Origin: Escherichia coli
GTDB lineage: Bacteria > Pseudomonadota > Gammaproteobacteria > Enterobacterales > Enterobacteriaceae
Assembly: GCF_022846255.1 (NCBI RefSeq)
Contig: NZ_AP025682.1
DNA: 64,000 nucleotides
Direction: 5' to 3' (one strand)
Positions 24,301-27,300 of the stretch are shown here, piece after piece. The first letter of the stretch is position 1. Each line of letters begins with the position of its first letter. Position numbers: made by a program.

Positions 24301-27300
24301 GTCTGGAAAGCCATCTACAAAAACTGCTGACCGATGCCGTGAAAATGCGTGGGCTGATTGCGCCCGCCAGCAAAGAAACCCGTATTCCAAAATCGATATA
24401 TGAAGGTATCCAGACCATTAACCGCAATCTGGTTTGTATGCTGGAGTTGCAAATCAATGCATACTGGGCCACGCGCCCCAGCCATTTCGTGTTATTGAAC
24501 GCGCAAAAACTTCGTGATACCCAGCACATGATGCAGCAAATACTGCTGAGCCTTGTTCATGCGCTGTACGAAGGTAATCCGCAGCCGGTTTTTGCCAATA
24601 CGGAAAAATTGAACGATGCTGTGGAAGAGCTGCGTCTGTTGCTTAATAACCACCATGACCTGAAGGTTGTGGAAACACCAATCTATGGTTATGTGTGGCT
24701 GAACATGGAAACGGCGCATCAGCTTGAGTTGCTATCGAATCTGATTTGCCGGGCCTTGCGCAAATAATTCCTGAACTTCAGAATCATCTTGCTGCTGCTT
24801 CGATTCAGCAAGGATAAAGGGTATGATAGTGAAAAGGGATAAAAGCATTGTCATCTGCGGCAGCTATGAGTAATGTTGGCCCTATCGAATAGCGGTTGCT
24901 TAAACGAATCCGACTCTCACATTATCAGGGGTATAAAAATGGAAACTACCAAGCCTTCATTCCAGGACGTACTGGAATTTGTTCGTCTGTTCCGTCGTAA
25001 GAACAAACTGCAACGTGAAATTCAGGACGTTGAGAAAAAGATCCGTGACAACCAGAAGCGCGTCCTGTTGCTGGACAACCTGAGCGATTACATCAAGCCA
25101 GGGATGAGCGTTGAAGCAATCCAGGGCATCATCGCCAGCATGAAAGGTGACTATGAAGATCGCGTTGACGATTACATCATCAAAAATGCCGAGCTCTCCA
25201 AAGAACGCCGCGATATCTCCAAAAAGCTGAAAGCTATGGGCGAAATGAAAAACGGCGAAGCGAAGTAATTCCTGTTTTATTCAATGAGGGTTGCCCGGCA
25301 ACCCTCATTGCTCATTGATTCTTATCTGTGTATCACCGTCATCATTCTCATCTGAGAACCTATCGAAATTAGCGGCAGCCTTCTTCTGTATGCAGCAAGG
25401 CAAAAAGTTCTGTAACTCCATTGTTATTAACCGCACTGGTTACTAACACGTTGTGCGCTCCAGCTTCCCGTAACCAACATTTCACCAAAGATATTTGTTC
25501 CATGCTGGCTAAATCTGCTTTGGTTACTACTCCAATGACCGGGTGATTCATGGCCCGGTAGGGCGTTTTTACCTCTAATTCCTGCTTCAGCGCTGAGATT
25601 CCTGCTTGTTGCCGGAAAAGCAGGCACCTGCCGTCTGAACGGTATCGATCCGGAAGCGTATCTGCGCCATATTCTGAGCATACTGCCGGAATGGCCCTCC
25701 AACCGTGTTGACGAACTCCTGCCATGGAACGTAGTTCTCACCAATAAATAAGCGTCAATATGGTGCTCCGTTGACGCTTACTTTAATCCGTTTTCTGAGC
25801 TTAGATTTTTCTGTTCCTACCCAGACCGTGGATTTGGAATTCATTTTTTGTCAGGTCAATGCTAATCGTTAAAACGGCCATAACGCACCTCCACTGGAAG
25901 GTTTATCAGTAATATCCTACCGTTGCTTCATGGTCGGGGCGTCCATTCCATTATTATCGGTTTTCCTTTCTGTTTATAAATGAAAACGCCAGCTGTATTC
26001 AGGCTGGCGTCAGGGGAAATGAAGCCTGTTGAGTGAGATTCACCGGTTCTGGTGCAGAAGCTGCAGATGGCGCAGGGTAAGGACATCTTCTCTTGCCTGC
26101 TTAATACAGGACAACAGTGCTGTTTCTGTGGTTAATGGCACTATACCCTGCATCACTGCATTGTCTTACAGCAACTGGTGAGGGCTGGCATAAGTTGCCG
26201 GTGTTTCGGTAGAGTCACGGTCATCCACCACGCGGAGTGAATAACCGTTTTCAGCGGCCTTATTAATCAGTTCAGTGATATTAACACCATCAATGTCAAC
26301 GACAATGTGCCCCATATCCAGCGCCTGTACGTTAACGCTGTCGGCTTCCAGTGTCATCATTTCGCCTCCGGATACTTACCCAGGGTAATGTTATTTACCG
26401 TTCTGTAATTGTCGCGGGTCATCAGGCCGGTCGCCCTGCGAGCCCGGAGGATATCGATGCTGTTTATTAACTGAGAGCGGGTACAGGCGCTGAATCCCGG
26501 CTGGTCGGTAGCACCAGCGCGTATTTTTCCACGAGAAAGTTCACCGCATCACACAGTGAAATGCCTGCCTCAATATGCTGCTCAATCACACGTTCATCGG
26601 CAAAAGGTGTGTCATTCTGTGTGAGGCCATAGTGCTGGTCCAGCAGTCGGGACAGCAGTATCTGCCAGATTTCAACAGGAGACGGGCGAGAACTGGCCGC
26701 CTGCCCGGGTAATACAGGTAATGTTTTCATACTGAAGATTTTCCTGATATGCAGATATAAAAATGGAAAAGTGGCGTGGTGAAAACACCAGGCCGTAGCA
26801 GAAGGCTATTCTGGAGAGTTAATTTTTCATTTCGGGCGTCGGATAAACAGCCAGATAAACGTAACCACAACTGCTGAGGGTATCGGCTTTGCAGGTCAGC
26901 CCTTTTGCATACAGCGTGACGGTATGCTGATGGCGGGGATTCAGTTCACCGCTGGTGAGCATGAGCTCCAGTTGTTTCATCAGCAGCGGAAAGGCCTGGT
27001 CCAGGTGGTACGCATCTGCATCGCTGAACAGGCCTCTGATACCGGCGCGGTCGGCAAGGTAATGCAACCGGTTACCCTCCTGCACCAGACGTGCCCCGAA
27101 ACAGGGCGTCACGGTGCAGGGCAGCCCCCACCAGGGGCGGTCGTGATTGTCGTCGGGAAGTGTTGTCCCGGGGAGTGTGTCTGACACGATAAAATCCTCA
27201 CAGAAAATCGGTTAAGAATGGTCCGGTAGTGGCGATAATTCTGCTCATCAGAATGCCCTGACTCAGTTCAGGGTGACACTCATCAGGCGGACATACGGGC

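Follow-up and report, generated by a model that had tools for sequence, protein, structure and literature searches.

A frameshifted cbtA toxin allele, common across Escherichia coli, beside an intact cbeA antitoxin gene in a CP4-44-type island

CbtA and CbeA are among the best-studied chromosomal toxin–antitoxin pairs, and together they form a type IV module. Within the toxin, the substitution R15C abolishes binding to MreB and F65S abolishes binding to FtsZ (Heller et al., PMC5624674). The antitoxin does not bind its toxin; K-12 CbeA bundles FtsZ and MreB polymers (cited in PMC5371832). Any one of CbeA, YafW and YfjZ counteracts all three paralogous toxins, and cells survive the deletion of type IV antitoxin genes (PMC5371832). 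Here we describe the cbeA–cbtA locus in a stretch of 64,000 nucleotides (nt) from Escherichia coli (contig NZ_AP025682.1, assembly GCF_022846255.1), called the window throughout, in which cbtA has lost one base and cbeA is full length. We are highly confident that this cbtA is a genuine pseudogene, a common and annotated frameshifted allele in a CP4-44-type island, and that its lesion was inherited as one allele, which is common across lineages of E. coli. All coordinates are positions in the 64-kb window, and open reading frames (ORFs) come from a six-frame listing and from translation.

The cbtA pseudogene occupies 26730..26357 on the minus strand and lies directly downstream of a CbeA-family gene on the same strand (cbtA begins at 26730, after the end of cbeA at 26819), the arrangement found in the family. 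A first-pass annotation of this DNA had proposed a 1-bp deletion near 26510, and nucleotide alignment with the intact cbtA of K-12 MG1655 bears this out: there is exactly one gap, the G of GTG-CGT-ACC, so that the G of the Arg74 codon CGT is absent between 26511 and 26510 (deletion site 26510..26511, minus strand). By tblastn, residues 1–73 of K-12 CbtA match 26730..26512 at 98.6% identity and residues 75–124 match 26509..26360, in a different frame, at 100%, with a joint E value of 2e-65 that is far beyond chance. The shift is therefore as first described, whereas the matching stretch before it, given then as about 80 residues, is 73 residues long.

Codons 1–73 (26512..26730, minus strand; tblastn and Pfam) remain in frame and include L38Q (codon CAG, variant base 26618). 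They are followed by 14 out-of-frame residues, beginning with the codon at 26511..26509, and by a premature TAA at 26469..26467 (tail and stop at 26467..26509, minus strand; translation and ORF list). The resulting 87-amino-acid ORF (26730..26467, minus strand; ORF listing and translation) thus consists of 73 native and 14 foreign residues and has lost the conserved C-terminal 50. Codons 75–124 and the original TGA (26357..26509, minus strand; translation, tblastn and alignment) now lie untranslated in the −1 frame, which starts 2 nt later and reads the C-terminal 50 codons through 26357 at 100% identity to K-12; the earlier statement that this half is preserved out of frame holds in full. No start-bearing ORF of at least 30 amino acids over the 3′ half of cbtA appears in the six-frame list.

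Profile comparison gives the same picture. Pfam was used here; NCBIfam has no model for CbtA, CbeA, YeeW or YeeT. Against PF06755, the real 87-residue product covers only positions 1–73 of 112, whereas a conceptually repaired CbtA covers positions 1–112 with E = 3e-56. CbtA-family genes have an uninterrupted ORF of about 124–125 amino acids, whereas this one loses its frame at codon 74. The gene is a CbtA gene by descent that no longer encodes a complete member of the family. An AlphaFold2 model built on a shallow alignment of 25 sequences, with a mean predicted local distance difference test score (pLDDT) of 64.9, was used only for placing the break; it predicts helices at residues 18–34, 46–54, 59–69, 82–101 and 106–116 and, at low confidence, puts the frameshift in a poorly defined loop, residues 70–81. 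A sequence search of the PDB returned no solved relative of CbtA.

Single-base indels are a classic type of sequencing or assembly error, and an error in a short repeat, with a true gene that is intact, had been offered at first as one explanation of the missing base. Some support would come from a rare full-length haplotype with Q38, present on 54 contigs in public assemblies. At 100% identity, however, the exact 80-nt junction of the deletion occurs in 1,486 of 5,426 complete E. coli genomes, from many groups and platforms, which is 27% of a collection biased towards clinical lineages; the exact intact K-12 81-mer occurs in 1,775 records of the same set. An extra base would lower the identity to 98.8%, and the query is covered to at least 80% by almost all matches; the 100% matches must therefore span the junction. 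The best matches to a 1,151-nt query have the same length as the query, and in their RefSeq records a cbtA labelled as a frameshifted pseudogene stands beside an intact cbeA. The nearest relatives share the deletion as well: positions 27200–52000 of the window (24.8 kb) are 99.9% identical to chromosomes such as those of strain 144 and ECONIH1.

The allele is also consistently annotated as broken. In all seven carriers whose annotation we examined (ATCC 11775 and strain 144, both B2-type, EC052, O157:H7 86-24, O111:NM, O103:H2 and JCC-EE 7), cbtA lies at the yeeA/tmaR-adjacent locus and is labelled a frameshifted pseudogene by the RefSeq Prokaryotic Genome Annotation Pipeline (PGAP), for example under the tags EAS44_RS10510 (ATCC 11775), BHW76_RS09495 (O157:H7 86-24) and CNQ53_RS10825 (strain 144). 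The yeeA–tmaR junction, a frameshifted cbtA and an intact cbeA are present in each of O157:H7 86-24, O111:NM, O103:H2 and JCC-EE 7. The exact 87-residue product of the window, with Q38, is already in GenBank and UniRef, on at least 1,000 contigs (for example ABJ01408.1), and its L38 sister protein of 87 residues is likewise on at least 1,000. The site itself, GGTGC(G)TACCG with GTGC now abutting TACC, contains no homopolymer, tandem unit or short repeat, such as a phase-variable locus would have. With the junction this common and the site non-repetitive, the probability of a sequencing or assembly error is close to nil. The frameshift allele is already known as an annotation and nothing about it is unexpected; a literature search for this specific cbtA frameshift found nothing explicit.

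A 6-bp inverted repeat, GCTGGT-GC(G)TACCG-ACCAGC (26500–26518), surrounds the deleted base, which falls in its loop. On the plus strand, antisense to cbtA, this inverted repeat is followed by GCGTATTTTT and has a terminator-like score, as a match to consensus only.

The first-pass annotation had also called the inactivation recent, which the distribution of the allele contradicts. The orphaned 3′ half of cbtA shows no other difference from the intact gene of K-12 and, taken alone, would look young. Across eight carriers, however, the yeeW–cbtA–cbeA module has a mean pairwise difference of only 0.33% (maximum 0.69%), against 1.1% (maximum 1.8%) for the adjacent yeeA segment; at a module diversity of about 0.3%, less than one change is expected in 150 nt, and the perfect 3′ half is therefore uninformative on age. 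Carriers include O157:H7, O55:H7, O111:NM/H8, O103:H2, O20:H12, APEC O1 and the type strain ATCC 11775, and they were obtained from people, poultry, pigs, dogs, a pangolin and water. By the established correspondence of serotype and phylogroup, they span phylogroups E, B1 and B2. An inactivation private to this strain or its immediate ancestors is hardly credible when the allele sits at one locus in lineages as far apart as O157:H7/O55:H7, O111/O103 and ATCC 11775/APEC O1, with flanking yeeA sequences that differ by up to 1.8% among carriers. Rather, because the same junction is found in so many complete genomes at a fixed locus, across many lineages and laboratories, the allele is an old, widespread, inherited polymorphism and not private to this genome.

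All four combinations of A12 or T12 with a deleted or an intact cbtA exist, so recombination or recurrent mutation has shuffled the locus. Recurrence of a non-repetitive 1-bp deletion is unlikely, and the most parsimonious history has a single origin, with vertical descent and homologous exchange thereafter. Among the full-length Q38 loci, three of the eight that we examined (L020, L022 and L023) have extra substitutions tightly clustered around the repaired site (26518, 26512, 26510, 26507 and 26498), a pattern that fits either chimeric short-read assembly or short tracts of conversion from paralogous cbtA copies. In the remaining five the G is the sole difference, and they could be ancestral, converted or assembly chimeras. 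At 100% identity over 242 nt, the full-length Q38 haplotype is found in none of the 5,426 complete RefSeq genomes; it occurs in draft assemblies and metagenome scaffolds.

These full-length alleles of the same haplotypes raise the question of whether the frame might be restored, by programmed ribosomal frameshifting, by transcriptional slippage or by a phase-variable switch. A −1 shift anywhere from codon 61 to the premature stop would rejoin the C-terminal half, and a GAA-AAA run lies at codons 68–69. A shift at that run, however, would turn the conserved YALVR into IRAGA, and the interval from codon 61 to the stop contains neither the X-XXY-YYZ slippery heptamer of a programmed −1 frameshift site nor an A or T run of at least 8. 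Slipped-strand phase variation would have no substrate, as the deleted base is outside any simple-sequence tract. Further, the single-nucleotide polymorphisms around the site in three of the eight restored Q38 alleles are typical of conversion tracts and not of a precise switch. We therefore give restoration of the frame scarcely any weight. A paper from 2026 proposes a programmed frameshift that may exist beside cbtA, in DUF5983/ANF00264 genes of the yeeW region, and not in cbtA itself (PMC13294457).

With the G of codon 74 gone, translation runs into a stop after 87 amino acids, and the product that is left is probably non-toxic and unconstrained. The lost half shows strong conservation. Among 24 full-length homologues drawn from Escherichia, Klebsiella, Citrobacter, Enterobacter, Serratia and Raoultella, the positions in this half with at least 90% conservation are R74, T75, D76, G79, F80, S86, L88, the SIDILRAR motif, A100 to M104, R106, Y109, V112, I115 and G118. 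In the retained part, L38 is kept in all 24 of these homologues, and the L38Q of the window copy is, on this alignment, a putative second lesion at an otherwise conserved position.

Variation among carriers points in the same direction. In the eight carriers, all three variable sites in cbtA codons 1–73 are non-synonymous (A12T, R15H and L38Q), both variable sites seen in intact cbtA alleles are synonymous, and four of the five changes in the carriers' cbeA are synonymous; all of these counts are tiny. Substituted proteins are also unevenly divided between the two forms. Q38, the allele of the window, is truncated on at least 1,000 contigs and full length on 54; N40, at a position where D40 is invariant in the family, is truncated on 418 and full length on 2; and T12 with H15 is truncated on 207 and full length on 1. 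The unsubstituted form is found on at least 1,000 contigs both truncated and full length, and the full-length A12T protein is on 179. Variants at conserved positions, L38Q here and D40N, V19I and P18T elsewhere, are carried almost exclusively by truncated alleles, which fits a drifting dead gene.

The alternative is that the 87-residue product is a functional short form under selection, either an attenuated toxin or a decoy that binds FtsZ or MreB. That such a product occurs naturally, as the first-pass annotation had allowed, is correct, and it is very common; functionality was not found, and there is some evidence of drift. The short form keeps both R15 and F65 (PMC5624674) and would keep the three best-predicted helices, with the break in the predicted loop. 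Against this, it has lost the conserved C-terminal block, and the substitutions on truncated alleles fall at invariant or nearly invariant positions, with full-length counterparts that are 20 to 200 times rarer. One of the variants, R15H, hits the MreB-binding residue, though this position varies among the aligned homologues, and every polymorphism in codons 1–73 of the sampled carriers changes the protein. Additionally, a docking study places residues 82–96 and 100–122 in the MreB interface, a computational result only (PMC8828653). We regard a selected short form as very improbable.

Several points nonetheless weigh against a dead gene, beyond the bias of the genome collection and the small substitution counts. 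Full-length Q38 alleles do exist, so that a later origin for L38Q than for the frameshift falls short of strict proof. Both mapped contact residues, R15 and F65, lie within the retained 73 residues. The N-terminal part is also the better predicted one, with pLDDT values of 72–84 for residues 11–70 against 47–69 for the C-terminal half of what is a low-confidence model. We see only a slim chance that the 87-residue fragment has residual activity. Similarly small is the chance, taken jointly, that the fragment is an attenuated toxin or decoy held at high frequency or that gene conversion from paralogues is a population-level mechanism for turning the toxin on and off. A pseudogene at an inherited lesion is by a wide measure the reading we favour.

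Two loci in other assemblies are of interest beside the window copy. In GCA_019282935.1 (L019:2544-2912), a full-length Q38 cbtA is accompanied by a cbeA with the nonsense change Q64* (CAG to TAG; window-equivalent position 26998), which is the reverse of the window: the toxin ORF is open and the antitoxin is broken. Such a pairing suggests either that Q38 CbtA does no harm at native expression or that another antitoxin covers it. In GCA_974492455.1 (L015:2423-3375), a full-length cbtA with A12T stands at the yeeA locus without adjacent cbeA, yeeT or yeeS, and this orphan toxin gene is abutted by a YagK/YfjJ-family gene and zinc-ribbon genes.

The antitoxin gene cbeA (yeeU; 26819..27187, minus strand; ORF list, tblastn and Pfam) is intact, as had been reported. 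It has a GTG start and encodes 122 amino acids that are 99.2% identical to K-12 CbeA over all 122 (tblastn), and it covers positions 1–100 of 101 of PF06154 with E = 5e-53 in an uninterrupted ORF. It carries one private synonymous change, E74 GAG at 26966, and the 88-nt spacer between cbeA and cbtA (26731..26818, minus strand) is identical to K-12 by nucleotide alignment. From this near-identity to K-12 CbeA (99%), the window protein probably neutralises toxin in the same way, through bundling of FtsZ and MreB.

An intact cbeA after loss of the toxin is to be expected, because CbeA acts on the polymers, cross-neutralises paralogous toxins and is dispensable. The gene may persist as an orphan antitoxin able to neutralise the paralogous toxins YkfI and YpjF, and as such it would be harmless and possibly useful, either too young or too constrained to have decayed. 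The most fitting reading is of an orphan antitoxin that purifying selection has retained or that has had too little time to decay; its retention may reflect mild selection, for cross-protection or for stabilisation of the cytoskeleton, or simply a lack of time. Some carriers, including TUM14771, ETEC1730 and PSJ-23, have a single copy of the module, and retention of cbeA therefore needs no closely similar paralogous toxin.

Downstream, the old cbtA stop TGA (26359..26357) overlaps the yeeW ATG (26360..26358) as ATGA at 26360..26357, in agreement with the initial description. The gene yeeW (26166..26360, minus strand; ORF list, a tblastn match at 100% to K-12 YeeW, and RefSeq annotation of homologous loci) keeps its own GGAGG, 4 nt upstream of the ATG. 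Ribosomes on cbtA would now stop 107 nt before yeeW, and any termination–reinitiation coupling to yeeW would be lost. yeeW is itself only a 64-amino-acid N-terminal piece of a DUF5983 protein, and is followed by fragments of a DUF957 gene, an IS66-type transposase gene and EutP/PduV.

The chromosomal setting identifies which cbtA this is. Within 26150–28040, the minus strand reads yeeS, yeeT, cbeA, cbtA and yeeW. The DUF957, IS66 and EutP/PduV fragments form the decayed right end of a CP4-44-like island (25369..26165, no strand assigned; annotation of homologous loci), which abuts tmaR (yeeX; 24873..25268) and yeeA (23709..24767), both to the left of the island and both matching the K-12 annotation. 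These relics match K-12 yoeF and yoeD at the right end of the cryptic prophage CP4-44, and the junction of yeeW, the DUF957/IS66/EutP relics, tmaR, yeeA and sbmC is the one found in K-12 and in all sampled genomes. The window cbtA is the orthologue of K-12 cbtA and not a paralogue, and tblastn found no other CbtA-like sequence in the 64-kb window. No tRNA gene was detected by ARAGORN in the 64 kb, and the island thus has no tRNA association here.

In the near-identical relatives the island is visibly in decay, with a frameshifted GTPase gene, incomplete ATPase genes, IS150 and an ISL3 element that contains an internal stop. The truncated island end is common to K-12 and to every genome sampled at the locus, and its decay therefore predates the cbtA frameshift polymorphism. 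By homology to strain 144 (L004:15686-20051), window positions of about 30900–35300 hold a trio of a patatin-like phospholipase, an RdcB-family protein and a dynamin-family GTPase, and the frameshifted GTPase gene would adjoin this trio according to the annotation of that 99.9%-identical strain.

Upstream of cbeA lie yeeT (DUF987; 27263..27484, minus strand; ORF list and annotation of homologous loci), which in the window is an unusual mosaic, and yeeS (27547..28038, minus strand), a module gene further upstream, which encodes a RadC-like protein with a JAB domain (NCBIfam TIGR00608, 149 bits against a cut-off of 133.85; homologous-locus annotation). The 331 nt at 27230–27560, covering yeeT and the 3′ end of yeeS, have a best match of only 97.6% in the 5,426 complete E. 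coli genomes; the top matches are paralogous copies, for example in CFT073, whereas the flanks are 99.9–100% identical to strain 144. With about 32 differences within about 800 nt, the region resembles a private mosaic or a patch converted from other island copies. Elsewhere in the window, Rfam models at gathering threshold mark a His operon leader at 14596-14719 (minus strand), the small RNA STnc240 at 17017-17091 (plus strand) and the Hfq-binding small RNA STnc490 at 58887-59010 (plus strand).

Toxin-first decay inside a degenerating island is routine, and this locus is one more chromosomal toxin–antitoxin module decaying in that order in a cryptic island, with an orphan antitoxin left behind. 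It has several practical implications. First, annotators should neither 'repair' the frameshift nor treat it as an assembly error. Second, counts of 'cbtA-positive' E. coli should allow for the more than one-quarter of complete genomes that carry a broken CP4-44 copy. Finally, the allele and its secondary variants L38Q, D40N and A12T/R15H can conveniently serve to mark lineages.

Among described systems, YkfI/YafW of CP4-6 and YpjF/YfjZ of CP4-57 belong to the same Pfam families as the module described here and share its gene order and targets, and their toxins can be neutralised by CbeA (PMC5371832), which is a possible reason for keeping an orphan cbeA; they occupy other chromosomal sites and islands, and neither is in the 64-kb window. 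Closer is the CbtA/CbeA pair of K-12 (YeeV/YeeU; b2005/b2004) in CP4-44, which is orthologous and shares the order yeeS-yeeT-cbeA-cbtA-yeeW, the relics, tmaR and yeeA. Apart from L38Q and the missing G, the window cbtA is identical to that of K-12, with 123 of 124 codons' worth of sequence in common. The K-12 gene, however, is intact, with 124 amino acids, and toxic on over-expression (PMC5624674, PMC5371832), whereas the window frame is broken at codon 74, and in place of the yeeR and flu of K-12, the window island has antirestriction and DUF932 genes upstream of yeeS. Closest of all are the frameshifted cbtA pseudogenes in RefSeq and the deposited 87-residue proteins, which have the identical deletion, locus and product, Q38 included, and from whose carriers the window differs only by its private synonymous change in cbeA and its private yeeT mosaic.

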